From Escherichia coli (GTDB lineage Bacteria > Pseudomonadota > Gammaproteobacteria > Enterobacterales > Enterobacteriaceae), in the NCBI RefSeq assembly GCF_041248615.1, contig NZ_CP158425.1: 64,000 nucleotides of DNA; one strand, given 5' to 3'. Of the stretch, positions 9,162 through 63,524 are shown one piece after another (position 1 is the first letter of the stretch; the number at the start of each line of letters is the position of its first letter). The notes beneath the pieces are model-generated. The model did no database searches and was not told where the DNA came from. It worked only from the letters and a program-made list of their open reading frames with translations. The translations under genes and the position numbers were made by a program.

Positions 9162-10346
9162 TCATGACTGTCCCTTGTTCATCTTATCAGCATGCTTACG
9201 CAGGTACTCTTTCAGGTCAGCATGAGCGTTGATGATATCGTTCATTTCATCATTGGTCAGAACAAGCGTGTAAGTATCAGTACTGACAGATTCACCTTCT
9301 TTAAGCTTGGCTTCTTCAGCAATACGTTCAAAAATCGGGATCGCGGTGTCTGCAATGACGGTCACAGTCTTTTTGTTCAGAACGCTGGACATGGAAGGTG
9401 CTTTACCTGCCGGGTTCTGTTTAGGAGCGCTGTCCTTTGGAGCTGGAGCCGGTTCCTGTACCGGTGGCGTATCCAGCGTCTCCGTATTGCTTTCATCGTT
9501 CAGTTGATCCGGTACCGGGGTGTTATCGGTAGTATCATCTGCCGGTTGCTCAGCACCGATGTTTTCCGGAGTCTGCGGATCTGCCATGCGCTCTTCTACC
9601 TTGGCAGCTTTGACGAATTTCAGCGTGTTTTTCGTCGCCTTGCCATAGATGGAGATCGCTTTGTTGATGTTATCTACCGCATCCTCACCGCTGTACATAT
9701 ACTCGTCCAGTGCAACGTACATGCTCACCTGATCGCTCACAAGCATGGTCTGTAGTTCAGAAGGCAGGTCCAGTACGCGAACCATCTGGCGAAGATGCTG
9801 CTCTGATTTACCACGTTTTTTTGCCAGTTCCGCAAAGGTCTTAGGCTCTTCTTTATCTTCAACCAGACGCTTAATTGAAAGCGCTTCAGCTACGACAGAC
9901 AGCGCCAGGTTGGAGTTGCCGGTCAGGGTGAAGAGTTCTGCTTTTGAAGCGCTACCGCGAAACTCTTCGCAGCGAATACGAGTAATGCGTTCACGCCCTT
10001 CTGCTTCCAGCTGGCGGTTTGCAATAGCGATGGAACGGATACGGCAAGCCCCCTGACGCAGTACAGGTACGCCATTAACCATCTGAACAACGATAGGCGT
10101 CACGCTGAACGGGTCTTCCATGTAGGCATCGGCCAGGCTGTTCAGGTGTTCCACAACGTGAGGCATTGAATAGTAGAGCTCGCCCATACCGGCCGTGCGG
10201 GTGTTAAAGCCTTCCTGCTCTACAACAACCGAAGGGTCAATGATAAGGCCGTTGCCTTTACGGGCACCGTTACCAGTGCGTTCCAGGTAACCACGAAGGC
10301 TGATTTCGTTGCTGTTGTTTTTTACTTCAGTTTCGATTGCGGACAT
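9162..10346 (-). CDS. ParB N-terminal domain protein (ParB/Srx-like), paralog 1
   Basis: GFNTR and VNGVPVLRQGACR motifs shared with ORFs 58095..59258 and 62469..63524; no ParA partner. Confidence 0.6.
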   Translation of the reverse strand: MSAIETEVKNNSNEISLRGYLERTGNGARKGNGLIIDPSVVVEQEGFNTRTAGMGELYYSMPHVVEHLNSLADAYMEDPFSVTPIVVQMVNGVPVLRQGACRIRSIAIANRQLEAEGRERITRIRCEEFRGSASKAELFTLTGNSNLALSVVAEALSIKRLVEDKEEPKTFAELAKKRGKSEQHLRQMVRVLDLPSELQTMLVSDQVSMYVALDEYMYSGEDAVDNINKAISIYGKATKNTLKFVKAAKVEERMADPQTPENIGAEQPADDTTDNTPVPDQLNDESNTETLDTPPVQEPAPAPKDSAPKQNPAGKAPSMSSVLNKKTVTVIADTAIPIFERIAEEAKLKEGESVSTDTYTLVLTNDEMNDIINAHADLKEYLRKHADKMNKGQS

Positions 10347-10560
10347 TTTTGTTCTCTTTTTTGGTTGGTTGTTTAACTGCGCTACAACACAACAATACCA
10401 GGTTCGACATTTTTCCTAATAGGTTGCGGAGAAGAAAAAGTAACTTTTTTTAAAAATTTTCCTGAGGCAATACTACTCGATCCGTCCGTTTTAAATCTTC
10501 ACAACAGTGGGCCGTTTTTACGTTTAAGCAAAATAACTGGTTCAGAAGGTGACTCAGAGA

Positions 10561-10575
10561 GAAAAGTTACTTTTC
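10561..10575. promoter_or_regulatory. palindromic motif GAAAAGTTACTTTTC (candidate operator)
   Basis: One of at least 14 copies of AAAAGT(A/T)ACTTTT in intergenic DNA; a second copy at 10435-10451. Confidence 0.5.
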
Positions 10576-11447
10576 CGGTTGTCTGGGCCAGTGATGGGAG
10601 AGTGGCAGGACAGGAATGGCTAAACCGGTGCGGGTCTCTTGTAAGTCGCAGGGGATTCAGGAGATATAGAGGTAAACTGGTACGTTCAGTTTTTGGATTG
10701 AGCCGGGCTTTTGGCCCGGGCTTAAGGAAGCAGAAATTTGAACGAACTGGCAGGTAATGCTTTATGCCGCCGACAGCTGGCCGTCAGTGCTTTGCTGTTC
10801 TGGTTTGACAGTTGGGGGATAACCGGCAGTTAGCCGCTGGCATTCCGCATCACAGAAAGCCCTGAGGTTGCTGAAGACGGACTCCATGAAATCAGCATGA
10901 GCATACGAGTCTACAGGACGTGTCTTGTTATCTTTCATCTTGTTCTCCTCAATCATTATTAAAACCAGCGGATTTAGTTTCTGGCGCTCCATCTGCTGAC
11001 CGGCTTTCCCAGAGAGCAGCGATGTGTCGGGTTCTTTTTCTCATTTTATCGTTTTCATCGGGCCCATCCGGGCGTATAAGAGACCGATTTGGCATGTTTA
11101 GGAAACGTACTGGCGTAATTAAAAGCTGAGGTTGGATTTGGAATAAAAGGATGCTTTTCCCGTTTGTCGGGTCTTTCGCCACCGCTGCACGATGATTCTG
11201 TCAGGCATTCTGCGCCCTCCCAGGCTGCACATCTGGAAACAAGCGTTGGGATGTTCCCTTCCCCTGCTCACCGTAGAAAGATCGGCAAGTCCCGACGGTC
11301 GTTCCGTACGAGCCGGGTCCAAATAATGAATAAATAAAACGCCGCTTCAATTGTATTGACAATAGAAGTCAGGAGGATCATAGTGTCATTCATGGTGCGG
11401 CTTTCGCACCACCGCCCCGGCGGTACCGGGCAGAACTGGAGTACCTC

Positions 11448-12392
11448 ATGAAACTTTCCCGTCAGACGACTTCTGATACTTCTGTTGATGGCCGTTCACG
11501 CGCATATGCCTGGGGCCGTGTCCATTATTTCATTATCGAACATGCACCAATGGCTGAGCTGGTCGCTATTGACGAGCTGCTGGAAAAAGCTGGCTGGAGC
11601 AATGACGGCTGTCCGAACTATGAGAAAGATGACGAGTTTGGTAATGCTGGTTACAGCTGTGGTTACTGGATCGATATTGACAGCGTGGGAAGCTTCAAGG
11701 CTGACTACAAACGTCTTAAGGGGGAGATTAGTGCGCATATCGCCTCAAAGGCGGCAGAGGTGGAGATCCGCGTACTGGACTCGATGTCCGACAAAGAATG
11801 TAAAGATGTTGCCTCGGTGGCATCTACTGTTCGCCGTGACTTACGTACGCAGTCCGAATCGCTTCATTCACTGCGTACAATCGTAACGGTTGATCATTAC
11901 AATCCCTATGTGACCACCAGCCGCCCGCTGAGCATTTCCGCCTGGACACTTATCCACGACTGTCTGAAAACAGGCACCATCAATGACGTCTGTTCACGGT
12001 TGAGTTCATTAATCCTGCACTCTGAAGCCGCGATTGCCCGTTGTAAGGGAAGCTCCGACTACTCTTCGGAACACGCTCAGCTATCGTTTTTTGCTGGTAA
12101 CGACTATGTCACCAGACGCACCCTTGTTGATGCAGCTCACGAAGAGGCTCTGCGAATGAACCGCCGCTTTGATGAACGCATTGCAATGAACGCGGATTCT
12201 GATGCCAGAAGGCTCCAGTGCGAATTCAACCTTAGCAACCATGTCGTACAGCGTAGGACCGTTGAATCTGCTCATATCCAGGCACTCAATGAAGACGTCA
12301 CCCGTTCACAGGCGGAACCACGCTGCCCTGGAAAGCTTCTTCTGAATATGACCAGTCATGAGGAAGTGCGGGACTCACTGAGCGCCTGTTAG
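11448..12392 (+). CDS. hypothetical protein
   Basis: 314-aa ORF heading a short plus-strand gene set. Confidence 0.45.
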   Translation: MKLSRQTTSDTSVDGRSRAYAWGRVHYFIIEHAPMAELVAIDELLEKAGWSNDGCPNYEKDDEFGNAGYSCGYWIDIDSVGSFKADYKRLKGEISAHIASKAAEVEIRVLDSMSDKECKDVASVASTVRRDLRTQSESLHSLRTIVTVDHYNPYVTTSRPLSISAWTLIHDCLKTGTINDVCSRLSSLILHSEAAIARCKGSSDYSSEHAQLSFFAGNDYVTRRTLVDAAHEEALRMNRRFDERIAMNADSDARRLQCEFNLSNHVVQRRTVESAHIQALNEDVTRSQAEPRCPGKLLLNMTSHEEVRDSLSAC

Positions 12393-12488
12393 TCCAGCGA
12401 CACCCCCTGCGGCTCTACTACCGGGCCGCAGTCTGCTCCTGCCCAGATGGTGCCAGTGGTGTAATGAATTTGTTTAATAAGGCTAAGT

Positions 12489-13091
12489 ATGATGAATAAA
12501 GAACAACTAATCGACAAACTGGAACGCGTGGTATGTGGTCAGTACTCCTACGAAATGCAGGAGCTTGCGTATTCGGCCCTCTGCTGCATTAAAGGCACCC
12601 CGGACGACTGCGCTAAGTTCCCTGTTACGCGTCCGCTGCCTGACACCTTAGTGGACGTATGGGACGAAATCGGGCAATACCTTGGCACAGGCAAAGCCAT
12701 TGAAACTCGCAGTTGCGGCGTTTCGCTTCTGCTTCATGGACACTGCTACGATTCAAATCATGTGCTTTACTGGCGCAATGCTGGCGCACTTCCAGCAGCT
12801 TGCGATACGCCACTGGCTGGTGGGTCTCGCAAACTGTTCACCTGCTCAGCCTGTGGAGTGGACGGTCTGGATGAACCACCTGAAACCAGTTGCCACTGCT
12901 GCACAGAGGGGGCCCACTGGGTTGAGAGCAGGCTCTTCACCTCCGGGCAGGCAGACCCTGAAGAATTTAGACCCGTGGCGGTCGTGAAAGAGTGTGCAGG
13001 CTCAACGCCGGATGATCGGCTCATCTGGAGTGTGATTGAACAGCTCAACGGCGAACTGGCGGAAGGCGATAAACTATTTAAGCGACGCTGA
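12489..13091 (+). CDS. cysteine-rich hypothetical protein
   Basis: 200-aa ORF with many Cys/His residues. Confidence 0.45.
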   Translation: MMNKEQLIDKLERVVCGQYSYEMQELAYSALCCIKGTPDDCAKFPVTRPLPDTLVDVWDEIGQYLGTGKAIETRSCGVSLLLHGHCYDSNHVLYWRNAGALPAACDTPLAGGSRKLFTCSACGVDGLDEPPETSCHCCTEGAHWVESRLFTSGQADPEEFRPVAVVKECAGSTPDDRLIWSVIEQLNGELAEGDKLFKRR

Positions 13092-32961: not shown

Positions 32962-33304
32962 AAATTTTCAGAAAAAAAACACCGCCTTTTATTTAAGATT
33001 GAACACATCCTTTTTAAATACCAACAATGATTATGAAACCACAATGTAAGTGAAGCGCCATTATGGAAAAGTAACTTTTGTGCAGCTCATAAATTTTATT
33101 TATTAGTTACGTTCCTTTGTCTTGTGGTCGAAGTTCATCAGGCGAGGCCTAAGAAGAATATGTGTGGTTTCAGCCAATGCGGTGATCGGGCATTATAATT
33201 TGGTCGGGCTATTATACGTGGGTAAAGGTAGTGGTAGGGAGAGGATCAGGTTAAATTGCATTTTCCCGGTTGCCTTCCCTGGCCTACCGGTTTCAGGTCA
33301 GACG

Positions 33305-38270: not shown

Positions 38271-38285
38271 AAAAGTTACTTTTTG
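38271..38285. promoter_or_regulatory. palindromic motif AAAAGTTACTTTTTG (candidate operator)
   Basis: About 110 bp upstream of the secreted-protein gene start; followed by GATAGG as in the copy at 53061. Confidence 0.5.
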
Positions 38286-41393: not shown

Positions 41394-41410
41394 CCAAGGC
41401 CAAATCTGAA

Positions 41411-42235
41411 TTGTCCTGTTTAAGTAACCAACCCGCTGCCGCCAGGCGGGTAAATCCTCTTAATGGAGTTTTAATGCAAATCTCAACTGAAGTTCTGAAC
41501 GTCTTATCTCGCTGCCGTGCTGAAGGGAACTTTCTTTTCCTGGCCGACCAGCTCGACCGCAGCATTTATGTTAAGACAAACAAAGTGCTGGAAGCTGCCG
41601 GTGGCAAATGGAACCGAAAAGAGCAGGCACATATTTTTACGGCGGATGCAGCTGAGCGTATCGAGCAAATCATTCTGACAGGTTCGGTCGACATCCCACG
41701 TGATTTGTTCAATTTCTTCCCTACCCCTGAGAATTTAGTCACAGATATGGTTCTACGCGCTGAACCAGCTGCCGGGGAACGTGTTCTGGAGCCTGAGTTT
41801 GGTGATGGCCGCATTCTGAAAGCCTTAAAACTGGCGGCTCCGGATGCATTGATTACCGGGATCGAATTGAACGATGAGCGATTCCTTGCAGTGAAGAACG
41901 ATAGTGTCCTTAGCACAGGGGCCGAGCTGGTGCATACCGACTTTCTTGGGTACCAGCCCGATGAAACTTTTGATGTTATCGTTATGAATCCACCATTCCT
42001 TAAACGCTCTGACGTTAAACATGTCATGCATGCCATCGCAATGCTCGCTAAGCGAGGTCGCTTACAGGCCATTCTGTCAGCTGGGGTATTGTTCCGGGAA
42101 GACACACTGACAAAAGCGCTCAGGGAGCGAGTCAAACAACTTGGCGGACAAATTTCGCCTCTTCCGGATGATACATTTAGGGAGTCCGGAACAAAGGTCA
42201 AAACAGCCCGCCTTGAAATTGATCTTCGCCGCTAA
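41411..42235 (+). CDS. N6-adenine-type DNA methyltransferase (NPPF motif)
   Basis: LEPEFGDGRIL (motif I), ITGIEL, VIVMNPPF (motif IV); paralogous to the domain in 54842..55840. Confidence 0.55.
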   Translation: MSCLSNQPAAARRVNPLNGVLMQISTEVLNVLSRCRAEGNFLFLADQLDRSIYVKTNKVLEAAGGKWNRKEQAHIFTADAAERIEQIILTGSVDIPRDLFNFFPTPENLVTDMVLRAEPAAGERVLEPEFGDGRILKALKLAAPDALITGIELNDERFLAVKNDSVLSTGAELVHTDFLGYQPDETFDVIVMNPPFLKRSDVKHVMHAIAMLAKRGRLQAILSAGVLFREDTLTKALRERVKQLGGQISPLPDDTFRESGTKVKTARLEIDLRR

Positions 42236-43688: not shown

Positions 43689-46109
43689 ATGAAACATCTC
43701 GCTTTTATTACTGCTGTAGCCGGACTCGGTATGTCTGTTCAGGCCCCAGCTCAGATATATGAATCGGCCTTTAAGGACACGAACGGTATTGAGATCCACG
43801 CCCCGTCTTCTCGTCTTATGCTTAATCCGGCATCACCGGTAACTTTGACACTTATTTCAGGTCTTGATCGTTTCGTTAATGTCAAAGTCACGAAAGACAC
43901 TGGAACTGTCATTCTTAATACTACGACTACACGGACGGGTGTATCAGACCGACTAACAGCTGCTGACGGTAGTGAGTTCTACGGCAAAAAAGTAACTTTG
44001 CCTGCTTTGGGTGAAGGCAAATTTGTCGTTCAGATAAACGTGTTAGATCTCAATCAGAAGCCTGTAGCGACCTATAACTATAACTGGCTAATTGATGTCA
44101 CCCCTCCAGCGGCAAATGCTCTTACCGCTAATACTGGTTCTGGCTCTACCGCTGGTGACGTGTGGAAGCTTGGATTAGAGGCAACGGGGCAGTATGACTT
44201 CACCTCTTCGGGCGTAAGTGATGCAAATGGTATTGATAAGGGCCTAATATATATTTACAGGCAGGACGGTAGCCTCTACAGCACTACACAGATGCAGTAT
44301 GACGTATCCGGCCAAAAGATGTACCACACTTACTCTAAGAATTCAGTTAAGGGAACCGGAATACCAGACAGCAACCTGGATGAAGACTTTACTGCAAAAG
44401 TTGTTATCTTCGATAACGCAGGTAATAGCCGAACGCTGCCAACTCAAAAATTTCGCTACGACAACACGCTGGGTGAGATGACACTGTGGGCCGTTCATGA
44501 TCCAAATACGTCTTCCAGCGTCGTACCCGGGGTTTCTAATTATCCGGCTTACAAAGCCGGTATGGTCGTTAACGAAAACCCTATTCGATTAGTCTACCGG
44601 ATCCCAAAATCTAACTACCGTGCTTATTCAGAAGGTGGGCTTCAGTTCATCAATCAATATTCCGCCCCCAAAGAGATAGCTGTAGACAGCACTTATGCTT
44701 ATGTTGAAATGACTCTTCCCTATGGCTCAATTAATGGGGATATGGCTCGTATGGCGAACTTTGGCCAGTGGGGAGGGTATTATCCGTCATACAGCCTCGT
44801 TCTAAACCCATCTGCAAACCAAACGCCTGCATTTGCGGGTACCTGGGTAGATTTCCTCGATGATAAGGGGAACTGGGTTAAGTGGAAGGATTTTGAGAGT
44901 GTGGCTTCATCACGACTGCCAATTAAAATTTCCCGACTTCGTTTTAACGTTGAAGCCCGGCCCTTTGCACAGGAGATCGGCGGTAAGGCGACCTGCACCA
45001 TTCCGGCAGGAAAAACCTCGTGTGAAGCGCCTGAGACGTTTGATATGGCCTTGGGTACCCAGGGCTACAATAGAATCCTTTACTTCGTTCGCAGCATCAG
45101 CAATCCCATTTTGCGGTCTGAGCAATGGATTATGACACGCTGGAACAATAAACAACTGCCGGTAATAAACTCGATATCATATGACGAGACTAACAAGCAG
45201 CTGGATGTACTGGCGTCACTTGAAGGCGATGGTAACTGGTTCGACTCGGTCTCATTGAGGGAATTTTATCTTTCCGATAAGAACACCGGTACCCGGATGT
45301 CACCAACAGGCGTAATCAAATCTCGTATCTCAGGTAACTACACGATTGCTTATGATTTATCCCGTCAGTCTGAAGGAAAATACAACGTTGAGGTCAACAT
45401 CAGGGACTTCTTCCAGAACCAGACCAATAAAACTTTCGGAGAAATTGCTCTGGATAACACTCCTCCGACAGTGGCCATAACATTCGACGGAAAGCCGGTA
45501 AAAGACGATACGGTAGTGTACGGCCTGGAGAACCTCAGGATCGCTCTGGCAGATAATCTGACAACCCCGAGGATAACCCGTCTTCAGCTCGTAGGTGGCC
45601 CCACAGCTGATAACGTTGAGCTTACGTGGTCACCGGCAGGCAAAGATACATACATGCCTGAGTATCCGAGGCTGTTCCCAAATTTCGAACCATCTGAAAA
45701 TTATTCAATTAGCGTAACAGTTGCCGATAGTCAGTCGAATACCAAAACCTATACTCAGAAGTTCAGTTATCTACCGAATAACCTTGTGCAGTTACATAAT
45801 CTACGCACATTGTCGGTCAGTTCACCTCTCAAAACGACAGATGGCGTACCACTTGCGTACCTGTCCACTAACGTTCTGCGTAAGACAAATGGAGAAATTG
45901 CTAAAGGGGTCCAGAACGCAACGCTGACTGTGCGGAAGGATGCAGCCTTCGGTATTAAATTTAATGGGGCACAGGCGGCTCCAGGCGAGTCAGTTGAGGT
46001 GCAAATAGATATGGGCCAGGGGGATAATCTTCTGTTACCCGTTTATCCTTCCGAAAATGGGAAAGTTGGCACCTCAGAATTCATGATTCAGATCGACGAG
46101 TTGAAGTAA
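43689..46109 (+). CDS. large secreted protein, paralog B of the about 800-aa family
   Basis: Signal peptide ending AQA; same conserved blocks as paralogs A and C. Confidence 0.6.
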   Translation: MKHLAFITAVAGLGMSVQAPAQIYESAFKDTNGIEIHAPSSRLMLNPASPVTLTLISGLDRFVNVKVTKDTGTVILNTTTTRTGVSDRLTAADGSEFYGKKVTLPALGEGKFVVQINVLDLNQKPVATYNYNWLIDVTPPAANALTANTGSGSTAGDVWKLGLEATGQYDFTSSGVSDANGIDKGLIYIYRQDGSLYSTTQMQYDVSGQKMYHTYSKNSVKGTGIPDSNLDEDFTAKVVIFDNAGNSRTLPTQKFRYDNTLGEMTLWAVHDPNTSSSVVPGVSNYPAYKAGMVVNENPIRLVYRIPKSNYRAYSEGGLQFINQYSAPKEIAVDSTYAYVEMTLPYGSINGDMARMANFGQWGGYYPSYSLVLNPSANQTPAFAGTWVDFLDDKGNWVKWKDFESVASSRLPIKISRLRFNVEARPFAQEIGGKATCTIPAGKTSCEAPETFDMALGTQGYNRILYFVRSISNPILRSEQWIMTRWNNKQLPVINSISYDETNKQLDVLASLEGDGNWFDSVSLREFYLSDKNTGTRMSPTGVIKSRISGNYTIAYDLSRQSEGKYNVEVNIRDFFQNQTNKTFGEIALDNTPPTVAITFDGKPVKDDTVVYGLENLRIALADNLTTPRITRLQLVGGPTADNVELTWSPAGKDTYMPEYPRLFPNFEPSENYSISVTVADSQSNTKTYTQKFSYLPNNLVQLHNLRTLSVSSPLKTTDGVPLAYLSTNVLRKTNGEIAKGVQNATLTVRKDAAFGIKFNGAQAAPGESVEVQIDMGQGDNLLLPVYPSENGKVGTSEFMIQIDELK

Positions 46110-46269
46110 CTACCCGGAGCCGACAGTAAAACTGACGGCTTCAATTTTACTGCCCTCCTCGACTCCGATCAGCCAGTACGTCTTCAGAGATTCGCAAGGA
46201 AGAACCGAAAGAAAAGTTACTTTAATCGTACGTTTCCAGCGATGCTTTCAAAAGACAATGCATACTCGT

Positions 46270-52840: not shown

Positions 52841-53060
52841 ATGATGCTCCGGGAATAGGTTATAGCCTTATTCTACGGATTCAGCCTACAAGGTCCGGTC
52901 GGATAAAGTGATAATTTGCCTGTTAAAAGAGACATCAAGTGAGAAAGCAACCAACGTACAGAATGCAAAATGGCGGCAGTGCATCTGGATGACGCAAAAG
53001 TAACTTTTTGTATCCACTTTTTTGGATTTTAGCCTTCAAAATGAGTATTCAACCAATCAT

Positions 53061-53074
53061 AAAAGTAACTTTTG
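53061..53074. promoter_or_regulatory. palindromic motif AAAAGTAACTTTTG (candidate operator), second copy at 52996-53009
   Basis: Two copies 150-230 bp upstream of the secreted-protein gene start. Confidence 0.5.
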
Positions 53075-54841: not shown

Positions 54842-55909
54842 TCATAGGACTTCCTCTTGTTGAATACGTTCGGCGTACAGGATGCGAACCGAAACGGTCG
54901 TGTTTTCAAACTCGTTCTCAAAAACGTCCATCCATTCCGTCCGGAATTCTTCCCCCAAAAGGTTATCGAGCCCCTGAAGAGATAATGGAAGAACGGCTGC
55001 TAGAGATCCCCCGGCTGCGAGATGAGATGCAGCTGCCTGGAGATGCCGCCTGGCCCGGTTATCGGCAAAAGGTGGGTTCATCACGACATAATCAAACTTC
55101 TTCTGTTGATTAGACTTAGACCATGTGAGGAAGTCAGCTTCTGTCGTATCGTATCCCTTAGCCCGGGAGATAAGGCAATTCAAAGTATCAAGCTCGATGC
55201 CAGTAACGATCACACCGGCAGGGAATGATTTAAGCAAATCCGCATGGCCAATATTAGGCTCCAGGAGGGTATCCCCTTCCCCTGCACCAAGCAGGGAAGA
55301 TACATATTCGCTGATTCGGCAAGATGAAGGGTAAAACTGATGCGATACAATATCAGGCATCTCCCCTATCTGGCCGATGTAACGAATAACCTCACACGGA
55401 TCATAGGAAAATGTCACATCGTATTTTGTTACTGTTGCCCCTAAGAACCGAAGGGTGTCAGCGGCAACACTCGAAGATTTGCGTTCGGCGAGAGACCCTA
55501 AAGATGTCCAGCAACTCCATTTATTGTCCCCGTCATTTTTAAACATCAGTTCAGAAAGCTGCATCCGGGTATCAAAGTCGATGCACTGCTTAAGTACAGG
55601 GAATGCCTCCAAAGATTTCTTGCTATGAGCCATACGGTCGGCAGGTAATGCCAGCGGTACGATAGCTGATAAAATATTGTTAAGCCGCTCGGCGATATCA
55701 GGGTGGACGTCAATATGCATTGATCCATTTTTGTAAACCCTGAAACGAATACTGTTGCCATCGATGCAGATCCATTTTCTGAACCCCTCATGTTCGACCA
55801 ACGCCTCAACCAATGATTTGGTGTTATGGATCGCCTTCACCTGTTCGCCACGGAAGAATGCGCATATAACGCGGAGCTCGCTCAGCGGTGAAATGCCAGA
55901 CTCTTTAAA
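54842..55909 (-). pseudogene. C-terminal methyltransferase domain of a gene split by IS629 copy 2
   Basis: EPNIGHADLL, TGIELD and VVMNPPF motifs; no ATG start (track start is GTG); frame open upstream to the IS boundary. Confidence 0.55.
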
Positions 55910-55967
55910 ATCCTGAACCGCCCCGGGAATCCTGGAGACTAAACTTCCTGAGAAAGAGGTAAACAGG

Positions 55968-56294
55968 ATGACTAAAAATACTCGTTTTTCCCCCGAAGTC
56001 CGTCAACGGGCAGTCCGTATGGTTCTGGAAAGTCAGGATGAATATGACTCACAGTGGGCGGCAATTTGTTCCATTGCCCCAAAGATTGGCTGTACGCCGG
56101 AGACTCTGCGTGTCTGGGTTCGCCAGCATGAGCGGGATACCGGGGGCGGTGATGGTGGGCTCACCAGCGCTGAACGTCAGCGTCTGAAAGAGCTGGAACG
56201 TGAAAATCGTGAACTGCGCCGCAGTAACGATATCCTTCGCCAGGCTTCCGCTTATTTTGCGAAGGCGGAGTTCGACCGCCTCTGGAAAAAATGA
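55968..56294 (+). CDS. IS3-family transposase OrfA
   Basis: 108 aa, nearly identical to 18179..18505. Confidence 0.9.
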
Positions 56295-57181
56295 TGCCAC
56301 TGCTGGATAAGCTGCGTGAGCAGTACGGGGTCGGACCGGTATGCAGCGAACTGCATATTGCCCCGTCAACGTATTACCATTGTCAGCAACAGCGACATCA
56401 TCCGGATAAACGCAGTGCCCGTGCGCAGCACGATGACTGGCTGAAGAGAGAGATACAGCGCGTATACGATGAAAATCATCAGGTGTACGGTGTGCGTAAA
56501 GTCTGGCGTCAGTTGTTACGGGAAGGAATCAGGGTGGCCAGATGTACAGTGGCGCGCCTCATGGCGGTTATGGGACTTGCCGGTGTTCTCCGGGGTAAAA
56601 AGGTCCGTACGACCATCAGCCGGAAAGCCGTTGCCGCAGGCGACCGCGTAAACCGTCAGTTCGTGGCAGAACGACCTGACCAGCTGTGGGTGGCTGATTT
56701 TACTTACGTCAGCACATGGCGGGGCTTCGTCTATGTGGCGTTCATCATTGATGTGTTTGCCGGATACATCGTGGGGTGGCGGGTCTCATCGTCCATGGAA
56801 ACGACATTCGTGCTGGATGCACTGGAGCAGGCGTTATGGGCCCGTCGACCGTCCGGCACGGTCCATCACAGTGATAAAGGTTCTCAGTATGTATCGCTGG
56901 CCTACACACAGCGGCTTAAGGAAGCCGGATTACTGGCATCAACAGGAAGTACAGGCGACTCGTATGACAACGCGATGGCGGAGAGCATCAATGGTCTTTA
57001 CAAAGCGGAGGTAATACACCGTAAGAGCTGGAAAAACCGTGCAGAAGTGGAACTGGCCACACTCACGTGGGTGGACTGGTATAACAATCGACGATTGCTG
57101 GAAAGGCTGGGCCATACTCCTCCGGCAGAAGCAGAAAAAGCTTATTATGCTTCCATCGGAAACGATGATCTGGCAGCCTGA
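56291..57181 (+). CDS. IS3-family transposase OrfB
   Basis: 296 aa, nearly identical to 18502..19392. Confidence 0.9.
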
Positions 57182-57223
57182 GTTCACAGATAAAACACTC
57201 TCCAGGAAACCCGGGGCGGTTCA

Positions 57224-57847
57224 ATCCACCCTTAATTTCTGCCAGGGGTATTTAGACGGCTCGCAAACTCCGGTAGTGATCATGCGGGTGGAGAACCCAA
57301 AAGCTTTGTTTGTCTTGTGACTGCGGCTCAGAGACTGGAAGACGTCGTAAACCCTTTCTTTAATAAATTGATTGCGGTCATTAAGCAAAGCAACGACTGT
57401 GCCCACTACAGCGTCAGCTGTGAAATCAGGGATCACCTGAGGCGGCATAATATAACGGTCGGCCGTAAACTGCTTATCCCATTCGTTACGTTTGGCATCC
57501 GACATGATAGGCAAAACATCAGTGAGTGCCATAACGCGTTTCCAGTATTCTGATCTCAGAGCGTTTTCTGCGAACAAGGCATCCGCTTCTGAGATGCTGT
57601 GGTTGTAGCCTGAGAGATAAGAATAAAGTTTCTGGTGATTGTGGGTTTTGAACTGGACAGCCATGAGTTTCAACAAGCAGAGTTCATCATTATAGGACTC
57701 AACAAGATCCGCGATAATGCCGAGCTCTTTGCGCATATCTGGAAGAAATGTTTCAGGAGAGCTAACCACCAGGCTATGAGAGGTTGTTAAAGCCAGTACG
57801 CTGTGACCTGCATTATCGGGTTTAGCTTCAGAATCAAGAGATGACAT
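57224..57847 (-). pseudogene. N-terminal part of the gene split by IS629 copy 2
   Basis: ORF 57221..57847 takes its stop codon from the IS terminus. Confidence 0.5.
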
Positions 57848-58094: not shown

Positions 58095-59258
58095 TTATTC
58101 TGCGTCCGGCTGTGGGTCAGTATCCTGATCGGTCTCTTCCCCTGCCTTCTTAGCATTTTTTTTACGTGGGTATTTTGGCTTCTCACCATTAAGTTTTGCC
58201 TGACGATTCTCCGCACGGCGAAGCTGCTTGTTCTCTGATTCTGTGATCTCTTTTGAAAGATTTCTCAACATCTCCAGAGTACTGCGGTTCAACGTAATGT
58301 TGATTTCTTCGTCAGCACTTGAATCTGTCAGCTCCGGCAATTCAATATCCCCCAGTTTCTGTAATAAGCTGGTGGTGATGAGTTTGACGCCTTCTACGGC
58401 TTTTGTGGCAATAACCGGCGGAATCCGTGCTGGCTTGAAGTCTGAAGGTCTGACTCGTACCTGACCATGTTGGGTTTTTTTCACCGTGATGCCATTCGCA
58501 TCGGCCTGCTCAAGTTCTGCGATCATCTTCTTGATACGTGAAATTGCTTCTGTTTCGCCGAGCTCATCGATCAGTGAAAGCACGTTAACATACGAAATAG
58601 CGTCAGCATGAATCCATTTCTTGATAACAACAGAACAGGTTGTCAGGCGGATAAGAGAACTGATGGTCGTCGGGCTTTTATTTTCACGTTGAGCAATTCG
58701 TTCGAGTGACCAGCCAGCAAGAGAATGTAGGCGACGATAGGACTCGCCAAGCGCAACAGGAGAAAGCGCAAGACCACGGTTACCATCAATGGTCGCGAGC
58801 TCACAGCCAATTTCATCTTCTTTAATCTCAACGCAAAGGATTGTGATGTCATGATCTTCATCACATGCCATCATTGCGGCTTTTAAACGGCAGTGCCCCT
58901 GGCGAACAAAAGGTACCCCATCAATGACACGTACTCGGATAGGGTCTACATAGTCACCTCGAATGTAGGCATTCTTGATGTTGTAGATGTGTTCTTCAAC
59001 CTCAGGGAGCTTATAGTAATCGTCACCCATTCCCATTTCGCGGGAGTTGAAGCCTGGCGTGACCTGAATTACTGAAGGGTGGATAGCCCATGCTTTCTGG
59101 TCACTTACTTCAGTACAAAGTTCAGGGTTTGCATCACGGAACTGTTTAAGCCCAGTGACGTAACGGCCTGTGCCAGTAACTACTGAAAAGGCAACATGGG
59201 CCGTTTTAAAGACCTTGTCATTAGCTTGCTGTGTAGGTTCTGTCAGTAAAACACTCAT
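58095..59258 (-). CDS. ParB N-terminal domain protein, paralog 2
   Basis: GFNSR and IDGVPFVRQGHCR motifs; upstream of the IS-split methyltransferase gene. Confidence 0.6.
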   Translation of the reverse strand: MSVLLTEPTQQANDKVFKTAHVAFSVVTGTGRYVTGLKQFRDANPELCTEVSDQKAWAIHPSVIQVTPGFNSREMGMGDDYYKLPEVEEHIYNIKNAYIRGDYVDPIRVRVIDGVPFVRQGHCRLKAAMMACDEDHDITILCVEIKEDEIGCELATIDGNRGLALSPVALGESYRRLHSLAGWSLERIAQRENKSPTTISSLIRLTTCSVVIKKWIHADAISYVNVLSLIDELGETEAISRIKKMIAELEQADANGITVKKTQHGQVRVRPSDFKPARIPPVIATKAVEGVKLITTSLLQKLGDIELPELTDSSADEEINITLNRSTLEMLRNLSKEITESENKQLRRAENRQAKLNGEKPKYPRKKNAKKAGEETDQDTDPQPDAE

Positions 59259-59606
59259 AGGGGCTCCGTTACATTTTTCTGCTTACTTTCTGCGTAGCGG
59301 GGATACTACCGAAAAAAAAATTCATAATTTTTCGCAAAAAAGGTACTTTTTGAGCCTATTCTGATTTTTTACAAAAAAAGGTGGCTCCCCATTACTTGTG
59401 ATGGCATAAAAATCGCTTCATAAACAAATACATAAATCCAAAACATAAAGTTCAGGTATAAGTGAGGAAAAATCTTATAAATCCGAAATGCTGAAAGTCA
59501 AAACTGTGCGTCTTAAACAACTTTTTTTTGCTCCCTAAGTTATTAGTTAAAGCCCGTGGTTAGGTACGATACCAGCACCTAAATTTCTCTCTCAGGTATA
59601 GACACT

Positions 59607-60440
59607 TTGACTCGACATCTCAGACACATGCCGATAATCAAATGGGCTGGTGGAAAAACGAAACTGATGCCTTTCATCAGCCATCACTACCCACACGATC
59701 ATAGTTGCCGGTGGGTAGAACCCTTTATAGGCGGTGGTGCCGTTTTTCTGAACATGTTTGCACAAAATGCATTGCTTGCAGATAGCAATCCAGACTTGAT
59801 CAACCTATACAGGACTATTCAAAGACAGAAAACTAACTTTATAAATCAGGTCCAAAACTTGGCGGATAAAACCTTTGTCGAAAAGGACTACTATGAGATG
59901 AGGGACCGTTTCAACAAAACCTGTATTTCTGGTCAATCGCTTCAAAGAGCGGCTTTGTTTTACTCCCTGAATCGCCTGGGCTATAACGGTATGTGCCGCT
60001 ATAACTCAGAAAGAATCTATTCAGTGCCGTGGGGGAAACATACAGAACTGAAGCTTGACCTCAATAAAATAGACTACCTTTCATTTCGTCTTTCAGGTAT
60101 TGAACTGATCACCGCTGGTTTTGAGGAGACTCTGGCCGCAACCGGTGAAGGAGATCAGATTTACTGTGATCCGCCATATGACAAAACAAGCAAAACTAGT
60201 TTTGTCAGTTACGATGGTAAACCGTTCAGCCAAAGCGACCACGTGCTGTTAGCAAATATGCTCGTTGACGCTCACAGAAAAGGCGCTGCTGTTGCGATAT
60301 CAAATAGCCTGACATCATTCACTTTGGGCCTCTATGAAGAGCGTGGATTCGTCATACACAGACTCAGCGCTTACCGATCCGTAGGAAGTAAGCCGAATAC
60401 ACGGAAAACGGAAACAGAAATACTGGCCGTGCTGAAATAG
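59607..60440 (+). CDS. Dam-like (D12 class) N6-adenine DNA methyltransferase
   Basis: IKWAGGK and DPPY motifs. Confidence 0.8.
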   Translation: MTRHLRHMPIIKWAGGKTKLMPFISHHYPHDHSCRWVEPFIGGGAVFLNMFAQNALLADSNPDLINLYRTIQRQKTNFINQVQNLADKTFVEKDYYEMRDRFNKTCISGQSLQRAALFYSLNRLGYNGMCRYNSERIYSVPWGKHTELKLDLNKIDYLSFRLSGIELITAGFEETLAATGEGDQIYCDPPYDKTSKTSFVSYDGKPFSQSDHVLLANMLVDAHRKGAAVAISNSLTSFTLGLYEERGFVIHRLSAYRSVGSKPNTRKTETEILAVLK

Positions 60441-61116: not shown

Positions 61117-61537
61117 ATAGCACAAAAAAAGGAAAACGGCAGGCTGTGGGGCATTGAAAACCGGTTAAAGAAAGCTTAGACGTTTCATATGCGCTTACCG
61201 GAAAAGTAACTTTTCTTAACGTTGGCTTTGACGATGTTCTTGCATTTTTACAAATGAAACCGAGACCCAGATCATTGTGCATTTTAAAGTCCATCTCCAT
61301 CATCACCTTTTAGCCTTAACTGTATGGTATTGGTATACAAAAAATTAAAATTATAATTAATAAGATTATCATTTTTTTACAATAGAAAAGGTTCTGATAG
61401 AGGGGAATTTAAATGTAAAAGATTTATACTCGCAGATCTTTATGAGGGATAAAACCCATTGCGTAAGCAACAATATTACGTGAGTGAGTCCTAACGACAG
61501 TTAAAGTCTTGGCTCTATATTTAAGCAGCAAAAACAT

Positions 61538-62254
61538 TTAACTGTCTTGGAGTTTATTTAACTTAAAAACTGTTATTGCAGCATAATTTTTCGAATCAAA
61601 TTCATAGAATTTTCTGACTTTTCCAGTCAAATGATAACGTTCACCCAATAAAATGTGATCCTGTTTATCGGCCGTTAAAGCGATCCCGTCATTTCTAACT
61701 TTACCAGTAAATGTAAAAAAATAACTCCCTTTACTTTTTGCGTACGCGGCCCTGACTTCAGTAAATGTTAGTTCAATGCTTATGACCTGGCCGATATTGT
61801 AGCTATGTTTTAAAATTTCTTGTTCATTTTCCGGAGTTTCAGACAACATCACATCAAAAGTTGTAAAGAAACAATCCAGCTGGCGTTCTGTCAAGAAACG
61901 GTTATTGTCTAATTGCGCCAATATACTATTAGAAAACTTAGTGTTAGCCTTTTTTGCTTTCTCAATAAGGACGTGGTTTCTGGATTTCCATGCTTCGAGT
62001 GTTGGGTTAACACGCAGTTCCGGAATGTTATCGAGAAAGGTAATTGGCTCTAGTGCCACTAATTTTTCAATAATGGGTCCAACTGTTTGTACCCCATGAC
62101 ACTTTTCACATAAATCAGCCCCTTTGTGGCCTGTGCCCGCACATTCGTTACATTCTCTTTCGATAGGTGCATAATAATTTCCATCTCCGTTAAGTGATAC
62201 ATTCACTGAGGCTGGTACCATATGACCATCAAGAGTAAAGAAAAGAGATTTCAT
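61538..62254 (-). CDS. zinc-finger protein with two CxxCxGxG motifs
   Basis: CNECAGTG and CEKCHGVQ in a 238-aa AT-rich ORF. Confidence 0.45.
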   Translation of the reverse strand: MKSLFFTLDGHMVPASVNVSLNGDGNYYAPIERECNECAGTGHKGADLCEKCHGVQTVGPIIEKLVALEPITFLDNIPELRVNPTLEAWKSRNHVLIEKAKKANTKFSNSILAQLDNNRFLTERQLDCFFTTFDVMLSETPENEQEILKHSYNIGQVISIELTFTEVRAAYAKSKGSYFFTFTGKVRNDGIALTADKQDHILLGERYHLTGKVRKFYEFDSKNYAAITVFKLNKLQDS

Positions 62255-62451
62255 TTTCGAAACACCTCCAAACGTGCCTCTACGATTGCTACAGCTTCTT
62301 TCACAGTTTTTTCATAGTGGTCATGCCCTTCAGGAAATTGATCAAAACGTTTACCGTGTTCTAACTCTTCCATGTTGCGTTTAAGGACTTCATGAGTTAG
62401 AAGCAAATCACTATAATTATCGATAAGAGTCAGCTTTATAGGTTTAATCAC
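62251..62451 (-). CDS. hypothetical small protein
   Basis: 66-aa ORF overlapping the next start (ATGA). Confidence 0.35.
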   Translation of the reverse strand: MIKPIKLTLIDNYSDLLLTHEVLKRNMEELEHGKRFDQFPEGHDHYEKTVKEAVAIVEARLEVFRK

Positions 62452-62468
62452 TCAACTAATCCTCGTTT

Positions 62469-63524
62469 TTAATATTCCTTAAGGAGATCTCGAATTTCCA
62501 GAAGCTCTTCTAATTTTGGTTTAGAAACAATGATTGCTGTATTTTCGTCGTTAAGTAAAGACAATAAAATATTTAGCTTTTCATCATTCAAGATTATTTG
62601 AACACCATCATTGGAAAATATTACATTATTACTATTAACATTTTTGAACAAGTGTGCACTATCTCTACCAAATTTTAGTTCTGTTTGAGTATTCGTTATA
62701 GATTCCGTATGTGTACTTTCCACAAGCTCAAGAAATTCAGATTTTAGCCGTTCTGTTTTCTTATGCGAGAGGCGCTTAATACCCAAAGTCTTACGAGTGA
62801 CTGCCGAATTTTTCTTTTCTGGTCCGCCTTTATTTAAGGTGTCTGGTCCTGCTCCAGCTGCATTGTGTTCAGGTATGCCTACAATTTTGCTCGTTGTAGT
62901 CTCAATATTCTTAACGCCAGGTAAGAAACCTTCTATATGTTTTAAAACCATTTTGTGATCGTTGGAATATTTTAACATTATTTCAATGGCGAGCGTTTTT
63001 TTGATTAGATTTAGGCTAATCAAACGTTGAAGCTCTAATGGCATATCAAGGATTTTTAGCATATTACGAATTGCGGTAGTTGATCGTTGATATCGCATTG
63101 CTAGTTCTTCAACCGAATACCCGAGACTAACAGCATGAGCTAATGCATGAGCTTGCCCAACCGGATTTAGCCCATTGCTTCTGTTACCATCGAGGTTCTC
63201 AAGGTATTCTTCAATTTCGTTTTTATAATCGATTAGGATAACAGATAATTTTGGAATATTAGCACCTTCAGAAATTGCTAATTTTAAGCCATGAAAACGA
63301 GTATGACCTTGACGAACTAAATATTTACCTTTTCTTTTTACGACCTTGATCATATCAACCTGCCTTCCTTCCTTAAAGGCTTGTTTGATTGACACAATCA
63401 TCGACTTGACAGGTTCTTGTTCGTAACACAAATCTCCGATTACCGCCTCTCGGGGATTAAATCCCTTTTCAATTTCAACTAGATTAGTATCCACTTCAAT
63501 GACTGTATGTTTGCTGTTGTTCAT
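62469..63524 (-). CDS. ParB N-terminal domain protein, paralog 3
   Basis: GFNPR and YLVRQGHTR motifs; AT-rich. Confidence 0.55.
   Translation of the reverse strand: MNNSKHTVIEVDTNLVEIEKGFNPREAVIGDLCYEQEPVKSMIVSIKQAFKEGRQVDMIKVVKRKGKYLVRQGHTRFHGLKLAISEGANIPKLSVILIDYKNEIEEYLENLDGNRSNGLNPVGQAHALAHAVSLGYSVEELAMRYQRSTTAIRNMLKILDMPLELQRLISLNLIKKTLAIEIMLKYSNDHKMVLKHIEGFLPGVKNIETTTSKIVGIPEHNAAGAGPDTLNKGGPEKKNSAVTRKTLGIKRLSHKKTERLKSEFLELVESTHTESITNTQTELKFGRDSAHLFKNVNSNNVIFSNDGVQIILNDEKLNILLSLLNDENTAIIVSKPKLEELLEIRDLLKEY

Follow-up and report, generated by a model that had tools for sequence, protein, structure and literature searches.

Orphan ParB-like paralogs, solitary methyltransferases and a dispersed palindrome in the IncHI plasmid backbone

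Genes of an IncHI2 backbone stretch

The window (i.e., the whole stretch of 64,000 nucleotides analysed here) is 100% identical to the E. coli IncHI2 plasmid p14408_M1 and to NZ_LT599829.1, and the same stretch is found in hundreds of IncHI2 records. It forms the backbone of an IncHI2 (mcr-1) resistance plasmid; its left end lies in traD, about 6 kb to the right of the presumed oriT, and its right end adjoins RepHI2A. Three ParB-like genes, five methyltransferase genes and 14 sites of a 13-bp palindrome were located (Table 1). A sequence-only reading had described the 54 kb that hold these genes, between the Tra1 relaxase module and RepHI2A/Tra2, as an anti-restriction island. We reject this description: sequence comparison reveals synteny with the IncHI1 plasmid R27, and the span also contains the RepHI2 replicon with iterons, three Ig-like genes and toxin-antitoxin modules. 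Judged by this comparison, the stretch is conserved IncHI core backbone and no discrete island.

Table 1. Coordinates of the genes, insertion element and palindrome sites in the window
Feature	Position	Strand	Details
Orphan ParB-like paralog 1	9162..10346	-	394 aa; GFNTR, LRQGACR in N-terminal domain, then HTH; R27 orthologue 65% identical
Orphan ParB-like paralog 2	58095..59258	-	387 aa; orthologue of R27 R0042 (74% identical); divergent from Dam
Orphan ParB-like paralog 3	62469..63524	-	351 aa; adjoins RepHI2A; R27 orthologue 58% identical
DndC/PAPS-reductase-like protein	23924..26308	-	794 aa; PADLOC DndC 4e-38; R27 orthologue 75% identical
Solitary beta-class N6/N4 DNA methyltransferase	29492..30742	-	416 aa; weak Mrr_N + PF01555; SPPY then DPFAG
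Small SAM-dependent methyltransferase-fold protein	30911..31519	-	202 aa (range 202-206); PHROG 15480 at 4.6e-34
Solitary NPPF (gamma-type) methyltransferase	41474..42235	+	253 aa; NPPF motif; MTS/type II matches
DUF4942-MTS methyltransferase, C-terminal fragment	54842..55840	-	carries NPPF
IS3-family element splitting DUF4942 methyltransferase	55910..57228	+	1.3 kb; ALIL frameshift pseudoknot
DUF4942-MTS methyltransferase, N-terminal fragment	57221..57847	-	aligns to R27 46612-47235
Dam-family N6-adenine methyltransferase	59628..60440	+	DPPY; TIGR00571 228 bits vs cut-off 115
Palindrome, 1 mismatch	485..497		3' end of traD; R27 has orthologous site
Palindrome, 1 mismatch	5387..5399		intergenic
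Perfect palindrome AAAAGTAACTTTT	10436..10448		96 bp upstream of ParB-like 1
Perfect palindrome AAAAGTTACTTTT	10562..10574		222 bp upstream of ParB-like 1
Palindrome, 1 mismatch	23806..23818		intergenic, 138 bp upstream of gene 23435-23674
Perfect palindrome	28855..28867		intergenic
Perfect palindrome	33067..33079		intergenic
Perfect palindrome	38271..38283		141 bp upstream of Ig-like gene 35746-38136
Palindrome, 1 mismatch	43988..44000		within Ig-like gene 43689-46109
Palindrome, 1 mismatch	46212..46224		intergenic, beside RepHI2 repeat region
Perfect palindrome	52996..53008		divergent intergenic region of Ig-like gene 50384-52840
Perfect palindrome	53061..53073		same intergenic region as 52996..53008
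Imperfect palindrome AAAAGGTACTTTT	59338..59350		ParB-like 2/Dam spacer, 86 bp upstream of ParB-like 2; conserved in R27
Perfect palindrome	61202..61214		5' part of 284-aa gene adjoining Dam; orthologous sites in R27, L016

In six-frame translation, GFNxR and [VLI]RQGxxR have exactly three occurrences each, all within the same three ParB-like ORFs, whose products share 22-29% pairwise identity and are 58-74% identical to their R27 orthologues. All three matched Pfam HTH_ParB (E 1e-5 to 2e-4), the 'ParB-like partition protein' family PHROG 1033 (E 1e-21 to 3e-28, spanning the N-terminal domain and the HTH) and, under its cut-off, TIGR00180. A profile of the paralog family searched against PDB matched Spo0J/ParB (1e-19), Noc (1e-16) and KorB (4e-10), and the AF2 model of the 387-aa paralog (pLDDT 89) was matched by Foldseek to Noc, ParB and KorB. 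These profile searches, which the sequence-only reading had proposed for ParB and KorB, bear out the three ParB-N-domain paralogs that it had described; on profile matches and predicted structure, all three genuinely belong to the ParB/Noc/KorB fold, though as orphans. In each, the N-terminal ParB domain is joined by an HTH DNA-binding domain and by a C-terminus that is helical and divergent. The CTP-binding Box II reads GHCR, GACR or GHTR instead of GERR and Box III is also altered; therefore, a KorB-type CTP clamp mechanism should not be assumed.

The count of five methyltransferase genes was likewise upheld by family matches and motifs, one of the five being split by an IS3 element. RefSeq places the starts of the 253-aa and Dam genes at 41474 and 59628 rather than at 41411 and 59607 as first read, and these two genes lie on the strand opposite to the other three. 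The 416-aa enzyme is assigned to the beta class because SPPY precedes DPFAG (PF01555); it has no counterpart in R27 and is 50% identical to an IncC methyltransferase and 46% identical to that of L017, each encoded near or beside a ParB-like gene. The 202-aa protein, which belongs with a phage methyltransferase family (PHROG 15480), carries the SAM-binding GxGxG motif (here GLGLG) and has weak NCBIfam matches; its substrate may be other than DNA. In related plasmids the intact DUF4942+MTS methyltransferase is 563 aa long. A second copy of the IS3 element lies at 18121-19438, the two copies being 98.3% identical over 1319 bp. A divergent Dam/ParB pair is also seen in the metagenome contig L016. 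No nuclease match was found among the methyltransferase neighbours, and no recognisable endonuclease of the kind that would speak against the sequence-only reading adjoins any of them: the five genes are solitary. The 794-aa DndC-like protein, which also matched TIGR03183 at 6e-34 (under its cut-off), is a possible further DNA-modifying enzyme.

A dispersed palindrome

The new observation here is an over-represented dispersed palindrome of 13 bp, AAAAGTWACTTTT. Its 14 sites in the window compare with 0.2 expected by chance, and none of 100 shuffles reached this number. The whole IncHI2 plasmid contains 43 sites and R27 contains 42, or about one for every 4-5 kb of backbone. No other palindrome is over-represented in both plasmids, and the resistance region has no site. 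Eleven of the 14 window sites are intergenic (P = 5e-5) and several sites fall inside genes, with most located 60-220 bp upstream of start codons. Their positions are orthologous, and the sites stay conserved where the spacers around them have diverged; copies are found at the oriT region, in tra operon regions, at the Ig-like genes for conjugation factors and at the genes of the paralogs themselves. In a Klebsiella IncHI1B plasmid with a ParB-like protein of only 36% identity, 41 kb hold 23 copies, and L016 has one site 43 bp upstream of a ParB-2-like gene. By analogy, this distribution suggests an operator network of the KorB/Noc type.

Candidate roles of the paralogs, palindrome and methyltransferases

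The explanation that we consider best, and hold with middling confidence, combines orphan ParB regulators, palindrome operators and protective methyltransferases as a set of the IncHI backbone. The paralogs would be site-specific DNA-binding regulators of the plasmid and not centromere binders, and at least one of them is proposed to bind AAAAGTWACTTTT across the backbone, in the manner of KorB at the 12 OB operators on RK2 or of Noc at its scattered sites; we infer this link between palindrome and paralogs. Among the contents of plasmid establishment regions, orphan methyltransferases make up a major class, and the solitary methyltransferases, perhaps together with the DndC-like enzyme, would pre-modify plasmid DNA against restriction in new hosts. 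Paralogs and methyltransferases would thus form one control-and-establishment set belonging to the IncHI backbone; as far as sequence comparison indicates, its probable use is to control plasmid genes and evade restriction, not to partition the plasmid.

Partition is the role that family membership would imply, and the sequence-only reading had thought it unlikely for want of a ParA. A motif search indeed found no deviant Walker-A within the window, and no ParA is annotated anywhere in it; on the same plasmid, ParA occurs past the right end of the window, beside its own SopB-like ParB (record 15974-18228), followed by ParM and its partner (21334-23021), these loci being 16-23 kb beyond the window. 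A clustered, centromere-like array of repeats accompanies the genuine ParAB locus (TTAA-N5-TTAA beside parA; ACAAC-N3-GTTGT clustered beside parA in the Klebsiella relative), and the IncHI palindrome is absent from these parA-adjacent arrays. In R27, the published deletions Del1 and Del7 together cover all three paralog orthologues and leave the plasmid viable and stable; at most two paralogs are gone at once, such that redundancy could mask a maintenance role, and the orthologues are individually dispensable for stable inheritance. Because genuine ParAB and ParMR lie elsewhere and the R27 deletions are stable, a partition role remains unlikely. An accessory version, with the paralogs as extra centromere binders on dispersed parS-like palindromes using the plasmid's ParA, would suit ParB-family proteins and palindromes spread over a very large, low-copy plasmid, but the same ParA position, clustered repeats and deletions make it highly improbable. 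A leading-region anti-defence set, entering early and transcribed from the transferred strand so that methyltransferases, with or without the ParB-like proteins, counter restriction and other defences, is doubtful rather than improbable. Leading regions typically contain ParB homologues and orphan methyltransferases, as the sequence-only reading had stated. Furthermore, distant relatives of the paralogs are found in arrays whose genes all run in one direction, together with PsiA, PF03230 antirestriction, a faint AcrVA2-like match and the same Mrr_N-N6_N4 methyltransferase, which fits an establishment/anti-defence neighbourhood such as the F leading region; from 4521 to 40299 nearly every gene is encoded on the minus strand, directed toward oriT like F leading genes, and the run includes a hok/sok module, as in F. 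Position and strand argue against it: the stretch sits on the relaxase side of oriT ('lagging' by the usual convention), downstream of mobI, relaxase and traD, so that early entry would require the relaxase operon to transfer first; ParB-like 2, ParB-like 3 and Dam are about 65-70 kb from oriT; and the genes for Dam and for the 253-aa methyltransferase run on the opposite strand. The reported absence of ssb, psiB and ardA also holds, with none in the precomputed Pfam matches of a related IncHI2 copy (about 1-57.8 kb of the window) and none named in the RefSeq annotation of the whole window.

The palindrome network may also be real and bound by a different IncHI protein (TrhR/TrhY, HtdA or an uncharacterised HTH protein), the ParB paralogs being unrelated to it; many other conserved IncHI proteins could be the binder, and we regard this as a serious contender, although on balance it falls short of probable. 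It would account for sites at tra-region promoters and in the oriT spacer, for a ParB-2 recognition helix that is not the same in IncHI1/2 as in the homologues from Klebsiella and L016, which share the palindrome, and for one palindrome family facing three paralogs, which counts against their pairing, as the lack of an identified KorA-like partner counts against a KorB-like network. On the other hand, the sites spread far past the tra genes, ParB-like 1 and 2 have sites upstream in IncHI1, IncHI2, the Klebsiella plasmid and L016, and a dispersed short palindrome is the classic target of ParB-fold proteins (KorB, Noc). Action elsewhere, either HerB-like on host chromosomal sites with host reprogramming or VirB-like through relief of the H-NS silencing of the AT-rich plasmid backbone, with a contribution to temperature-dependent expression, appears unlikely: HerB, an orphan leading-region ParB-like protein, does bind the chromosome, R27 R0042 (the ParB-like 2 orthologue) shows high expression that rises 2.7-fold at 25 C, the temperature permissive for conjugation, and IncHI plasmids encode H-NS and Hha, but the paralogs have neither sequence similarity to HerB by BLAST nor its D3/D4 domains, and plasmid targets are favoured by a palindrome set that is dense and specific to the plasmid.

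Comparison with known systems

Among known systems, the favoured regulator-operator reading resembles KorB of the IncP-1 plasmid RK2, a ParB-fold protein with an HTH and one of the best Foldseek matches of the 387-aa paralog. KorB recognises a 13-bp palindrome (core TTTAGCGGCTAAA) at 12 scattered sites, roughly one every 5 kb, whether close to promoters or distant from them, and thereby controls backbone genes; the IncHI palindrome is likewise 13 bp and dispersed. KorB differs in that it doubles as the partition ParB, with the gene for its ParA (IncC) alongside, and in that it works with KorA, whereas IncHI has three paralogs with GHCR-like rather than GERR Box II, ParA not adjacent, no KorA identified and putative palindrome binding. 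Noc, the top Foldseek match (1e-16 with the family profile), is also a ParB paralog without ParA that has many dispersed palindromic sites; however, it is chromosomal, possesses a membrane-targeting N-terminal helix and canonical CTP motifs, and is only about 18% identical to the IncHI paralogs.

HerB (YfjB, F leading region) shares the character of an orphan, non-partition plasmid ParB-like protein with a nucleotide-binding domain and HTH, and plasmids of several MOB types, MOBH included, carry homologues; it differs in its 652 aa with extra D3 and D4 domains and in acting on the host chromosome. Two further ParB-fold proteins, VirB (Shigella) and BisD (ICEclc), have been recruited to regulate mobile-element transcription; likened here by description only, they are reported to be CTP-dependent, and they have few target sites rather than about 40. 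Leading-region orphan methyltransferases such as M.EcoGIX, proposed to protect incoming DNA, are similarly solitary and near ParB homologues on conjugative plasmids, whereas here five different enzymes lie on both strands and the leading-region position, like expression from the transferred strand, is only putative. Finally, IncC (IncA/C), whose locus has no AAAGTNACTTT sites and carries its own parS-like palindrome TTTCACATGTGAAA in four copies, encodes a ParB-like protein 30-34% identical to the IncHI paralogs and the Mrr_N-N6_N4 methyltransferase related to the 416-aa enzyme, the two genes lying about 1 kb apart on a MOBH plasmid.

Three ParB-fold paralogs on an IncHI backbone

Six-frame translation of the window yielded the motif GFNxR exactly three times and [VLI]RQGxxR exactly three times, all on the minus strand and all within three orphan ParB-like ORFs of 394, 387 and 351 aa (paralogs 1, 2 and 3; see table). 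Pairwise identity is 22-29% among the paralogs and 19% with the genuine ParB of the plasmid. Each paralog matches Pfam HTH_ParB and, under its cut-off, TIGR00180, and PHROG 1033 ('ParB-like partition protein') is matched by all three over the N-terminal domain and HTH (E 1e-21 to 3e-28). A word-indexed homologue search returned close relatives only; an exhaustive search of 1.84 billion representative proteins returned 660 relatives at E <= 1e-3. When a 66-sequence family profile was compared with the PDB, it matched Spo0J/ParB (1.4e-19), Noc (1e-16) and KorB (4e-10), and the AF2 model of paralog 2 (pLDDT 89, pTM 0.78), which has an extra helical C-terminal region, was matched by Foldseek to Noc, ParB and KorB with probability 1.0. 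The paralogs belong to the ParB/Spo0J/KorB/Noc superfamily (ParB-CTPase fold), with an N-terminal ParB domain followed by an HTH. Motif counts and profile matches thus bear out the three ParB-like paralogs of the sequence-only reading, whose observations (ParB paralogs, absence of ParA, methyltransferases) were accurate overall. Box I keeps the N and R (GFNxR). Box II reads GHCR, GACR or GHTR versus GERRxR, with only the G and the last R conserved, and is (V/L)R(D/Q)G(H/A)(C/T)R across the family; Box III is DGNR/TGNS-like versus canonical ENxxR. Because Boxes II and III are altered, CTP dependence of the paralogs is not to be assumed.

By Megablast the window is 100% identical to record 174,074-238,073 of p14408_M1 (NZ_LT599829.1, 238,073 bp), an E. 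coli plasmid with an IncHI2A replicon, MOBH relaxase and MPF_F, and at least 80% of the stretch is present in hundreds of IncHI2 records. The left window edge falls inside the coupling-protein gene traD, with mobI, a small gene and the MobH relaxase gene directly upstream; the RepHI2A initiator gene adjoins the right edge, and Tra2 lies beyond. We presume the 760-bp spacer between mobI and the divergent trh genes to be oriT, since the IncA/C oriT sits directly upstream of mobI. Synteny with the IncHI1 plasmid R27 takes in nearly all genes of the span, with orthologue identities of 65%, 74% and 58% for paralogs 1, 2 and 3, 71% for Dam, 68-71% for the DUF4942 methyltransferase and 75% for a DndC-like protein; the 416-, 202- and 253-aa methyltransferases are IncHI2-specific additions. 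The span also carries the RepHI2 initiator, three Ig-like (Big_3) genes, a HigB/RelE-type toxin gene and a hok/sok module. What had been called an island (9162-63524) is therefore IncHI backbone. In R27, the paralog 2 orthologue (R0042) ranks with the strongly expressed genes of the plasmid and is 2.7-fold up at 25 C, the conjugation-permissive temperature.

Several other features were recorded. The same IncHI2 backbone proteins are encoded on CP015574.1 (4.94-Mb contig; loci L005-L007), which carries either a chromosomally integrated IncHI2 plasmid or an assembly join. In the RepHI2 replicon, repHI2 is followed downstream by about ten tandem units of 81 bp and preceded by iteron-like repeats of 21 bp; a 229-aa ORF inside the repeat array is probably not a gene. 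A 93-aa hypothetical protein is labelled 'Brucella suis mprF' at 100% identity in the PLSDB resistance-gene prediction, a label that looks like a database artefact.

Coordinates of features in the window, on p14408_M1 (record) and on related plasmids
Feature	Position	Strand	Remark
Paralog 1	9162-10346	-	394 aa
Paralog 2	58095-59258	-	387 aa
Paralog 3	62469-63524	-	351 aa
AAAAGTWACTTTT sites	485, 5387, 10436, 10562, 23806, 28855, 33067, 38271, 43988, 46212, 52996, 53061, 59338, 61202		13 bp each
Ig-like gene	35746-38136	-	DUF4165/Big_3
Ig-like gene	43689-46109	+	DUF4165/Big_3
Ig-like gene	50384-52840	-	DUF4165/Big_3
Four-gene block	11448-13750	+	DUF5417 and three hypotheticals; last gene 13547-13750
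hok-family toxin gene and sok antisense RNA	14169-14288, 14325-14483	-	Rfam RF01794, 81 bits
'mprF'-labelled hypothetical	15503-15784	-	93 aa
IS3-family copy	18121-19438		truncates DUF3085 gene
IS3-family copy	55910-57228		splits DUF4942 methyltransferase
DndC-like gene	23924-26308	-	794 aa
RepHI2 replicon repeats	46871-47699, 49516-49594, 49960-50018
ORF in repeat array	47135-47824		229 aa; probably not a gene
Presumed oriT spacer	record 167,406-168,165		760 bp
AAAAGTWACTTTT in presumed oriT spacer	record 167482, 167967; R27 108335, 108820
Genuine parA/parB	record 15,974-18,228		Tra2
parM	record 21,334-22,371		Tra2; adjacent downstream gene runs to 23,021
Repeat-filled stretch upstream of parA	record 11637-15973; R27 25339-28464; Klebsiella plasmid (L014) 25153-26982		probably Par1 centromere

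A dispersed palindrome and the partition question

In a search for operators near the paralog genes, AAAAGTAACTTTT and its complement were found upstream of paralog 1. The 13-bp palindrome AAAAGTWACTTTT, counted in the window, the IncHI2 plasmid and R27 with one mismatch allowed, occurs 14 times in the window versus 0.2 expected, and none of 100 shuffles reached 14. Site totals are 43 (20 perfect) for the complete IncHI2 plasmid and 42 (25 perfect) for R27, with zero in the 48-kb resistance region. Palindromes with 5-7-bp arms were counted exhaustively; AAAGT-N-ACTTT was the sole one over-represented in both plasmids (51 and 46 copies), and no second family common to IncHI1 and IncHI2 was found for the remaining paralogs. 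Window sites are intergenic in 11 of 14 cases, versus a non-coding share of 25.5% (P = 5e-5), and their usual place is 60-220 bp upstream of a start codon; promoter-proximal sites include two at paralog 1, a conserved imperfect one at paralog 2 and those of the Ig-like genes. A search near the paralog 1 sites found no promoter consensus. Orthologous sites in R27 lie in the 5' and 3' parts of traD, twice in the oriT spacer, beside RepHI1A/RepHI2A, and upstream of paralogs 1 and 2 and of the Ig-like genes; the sites form conserved islands within diverged spacers. The existence of the AAAAGTWACTTTT set, its conservation and its preference for promoter-proximal positions are established. As a separate observation, the two copies inside the presumed oriT spacer may link AAAAGTWACTTTT to relaxosome or tra-promoter control.

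The palindrome extends to more distant elements. A Klebsiella IncHI1B/FIB plasmid, whose ParB-like protein is just 36% identical, has 23 copies in 41 kb, and each of its three tandem Ig-like genes has one copy 40-80 bp upstream; in the window, two of the three paralogous Ig-like genes (~800 aa) have one 140-230 bp upstream. A 4-kb metagenome contig with a Dam/ParB pair carries AAAAGTWACTTTT twice, once 43 bp upstream of the ParB gene. The IncC locus and the more distant loci of P0043, a ParB-like relative, were without AAAAGTWACTTTT. Comparison of recognition helices across the palindrome-carrying elements singled out no one paralog, and a literature search, with the subscription papers on R27 and R478 outside its scope, returned no paper relevant to AAAAGTWACTTTT. 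Separately, the IncC plasmid NZ_CP022063.1 (L015) has the parS-like TTTCACATGTGAAA four times in 40 kb around an orphan ParB-like gene and a methyltransferase.

Could the paralogs serve in partition? Type Ia ParABS systems are marked by a Walker-type ParA in the ParB operon, clustered centromere repeats beside the par genes and a ParB on which stable inheritance depends, and by the R27 literature and our searches the paralogs show none of the three. The window holds no deviant Walker-A ParA motif, and near the paralogs there are just one or two dispersed palindromes, without clustered centromere repeats. A genuine ParA/ParB pair lies in Tra2; its ParB is SopB-like and distinct from the paralogs, and 13-19 copies of TTAA-N5-TTAA are clustered beside its parA. 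The equivalent parA-side array of the Klebsiella IncHI1B relative is ACAAC-N3-GTTGT, and AAAAGTWACTTTT is absent from these centromere-like arrays beside parAB. In a systematic deletion study of R27, Del1 (40,355-46,955), which takes out the orthologues of paralogs 3 and 2, Dam and part of the DUF4942 methyltransferase, and Del7 (90,001-96,150), which takes out the paralog 1 orthologue, were both obtained, and stability was lowered only by Del16. A partition role is rejected on the separate parAB with its own array, the lack of ParA in the window and the R27 deletions, with redundancy among the paralogs possible. Both the absence of ParA from the window and the unlikelihood of a partition role had been proposed from the sequence; the first is confirmed and the second well supported. 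Tra2 also holds a ParM gene. Short palindromic repeats fill 3-4 kb of unannotated sequence upstream of the genuine parA, probably the Par1 centromere.

Solitary methyltransferases and the leading-region label

All five methyltransferase genes of the sequence-only reading were confirmed by family matches and catalytic motifs (SPPY, NPPF twice, DPPY). The 416-aa enzyme is beta-class (PF01555), with SPPY before DPFAG and a weak match to Mrr_N rather than to a ParB domain, so we reject a ParB-methyltransferase fusion. The 202-aa protein matches a phage methyltransferase family (5e-34) and qualifies by its SAM-binding fold only; the 253-aa enzyme is NPPF-type; the DUF4942+MTS NPPF enzyme (563 aa when intact) is interrupted here by a 1.3-kb IS3-family element; and the Dam-family enzyme scores 228 bits to TIGR00571. 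Our searches, which reach recognisable nuclease folds, returned no nuclease match among the methyltransferase neighbours, so the adjacent cognate endonucleases that the sequence-only reading had named as contrary to it did not appear. The methyltransferases are solitary, without a recognisable adjacent endonuclease. A restriction-modification pair of Dam with the 284-aa gene convergent to it has no support, the 284-aa protein being without a match in NCBIfam, PHROGs, PADLOC or PDB.

Near these genes, the DndC/PAPS-reductase-like protein (PADLOC DndC, 4e-38) has no other dnd genes in its vicinity and, like the methyltransferases, may modify DNA as a solitary enzyme. Its pairing with a ParB-like gene in the manner of IbrA/IbrB is rejected, as the two lie 13 kb apart and no IbrB-type match was found. 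The two IS3-family copies, 98.3% identical and both bearing an ALIL frameshift pseudoknot, lie as direct repeats at a distance of 37 kb and could offer a route to deletion of the intervening region.

Gene content favours a leading region in part. ParB homologues and orphan methyltransferases are listed in the literature among typical early-entry genes, and the F leading region carries a methylase, an antirestriction gene, ssb, the ParB-like HerB, psiB and hok, all directed toward oriT. More distant relatives of the paralogs keep similar company: P0031, a ParB-like relative 32-39% identical to the paralogs, sits in a one-direction array of establishment-type genes with an adjacent 46%-identical Mrr_N-N6_N4 methyltransferase, HigB, a faint AcrVA2-like match and PsiA; the P0043 loci are one-direction arrays with PF03230 antirestriction; the divergent Dam/ParB-2 pair is retained on the metagenome contig; and on IncC plasmids a ParB-like gene (30-34% identical) and a methyltransferase (50% identical) are separated by about 1 kb. 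By analogy with this company, both the leading-region and the anti-restriction readings are plausible. Position argues the other way. The sequence-only reading had called for oriT to be located, and the presumed oriT, placed by the IncA/C analogy, does lie left of the window, at a distance of about 6 kb, but the window is downstream of the relaxase operon, on the relaxase side of oriT rather than the opposite one, and relaxosome genes belong by usual convention to the lagging region. Genes at 4521-40299 are almost all on the minus strand, directed toward oriT, a run for which the transferred strand could serve as template only if transfer first crosses mobI, the relaxase gene and traD. Dam and the 253-aa methyltransferase are on the plus strand, and paralogs 2 and 3 are ~65-70 kb from the presumed oriT. 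In the IncA/C oriT study nic could not be mapped, and the reviews give no transfer polarity for IncHI, the original R27 papers being outside the literature search. As had been noted from the sequence, ssb, psiB and ardA were not recognised: SSB, PsiB and ArdA appear neither in the precomputed Pfam hits (most of the span) nor in the RefSeq annotation (whole window), and of the wider hallmarks ssb, psiB/psiA and ardA/klcA none was recognised in the window, only hok/sok being present. On balance, gene company keeps the leading-region label plausible, and position and the lack of recognised hallmarks tilt us somewhat against it.

Two observations touch the same stretch. A hok/sok-type module is found in the F leading region too. 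The four-gene block at 11448-13750 breaks the long minus-strand run, and its first three genes are without an R27 counterpart (the last has one), which suggests an IncHI2-specific insertion.

A possible plasmid-wide circuit

At least one orphan paralog would, in the mechanism we propose, bind AAAAGTWACTTTT and regulate IncHI backbone genes; the pairing of protein and palindrome, the direction of regulation and any nucleotide use by the paralogs are putative. The solitary methyltransferases, and possibly the DndC-like enzyme, would modify plasmid DNA and so blunt restriction in new hosts, with presumptive methylation targets and protective effect. The fullest form of this proposal is a KorB/Noc-like network in which about 40-50 AAAAGTWACTTTT copies across the plasmid are bound by one or more of the three ParA-less paralogs with their non-canonical, GHCR-type nucleotide pocket; genes for transfer, Ig-like adhesins, replication and establishment would thereby be silenced or activated in concert, possibly as the plasmid enters a new host. 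We hold this network to be rather unlikely as a whole and put it forward tentatively.

Plasmids of the IncHI1 and IncHI2 groups, major carriers of mcr-1 and other resistance genes, disseminate colistin, carbapenem and multidrug resistance in Salmonella, E. coli, Enterobacter and Klebsiella; function has been assigned for a minority of their backbone genes. Were the paralogs and the palindrome to form a KorB-OB-like circuit, this would explain the low burden of a ~240-kb plasmid and its coordinated, temperature-dependent transfer, and would offer a single cis element and a few proteins as targets for blocking spread. Five or six solitary DNA-modifying enzymes give a testable explanation of wide host range despite restriction. 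On the ordinary reading, the span amounts to no more than annotated IncHI backbone. Annotation of the genes as such goes back to the R27 sequence; novelty may lie in the plasmid-wide palindrome and in its possible connection with the ParB paralogs.

Among known systems, membership of the HerB (YfjB) family, which a preprint defines by a four-domain architecture with at least 80% coverage of D1-D4, is rejected: the paralogs lack that architecture, have no BLASTP similarity to F HerB at E <= 10 beyond chance short matches, and measure 351-394 aa versus 652 aa. Confirmation of the circuit would add a ParA-less, multi-paralog case with an altered nucleotide pocket to the ParB-fold regulators KorB, VirB, BisD and HerB. 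The scattered binding sites of Noc resemble the AAAAGTWACTTTT pattern. KorB of RK2 is likewise a ParB-fold protein, with a 13-bp palindromic operator at 12 dispersed sites from which it silences backbone genes at short and long range, and the IncHI plasmids share with it many dispersed, often promoter-proximal copies of one short palindrome, here putative operators.
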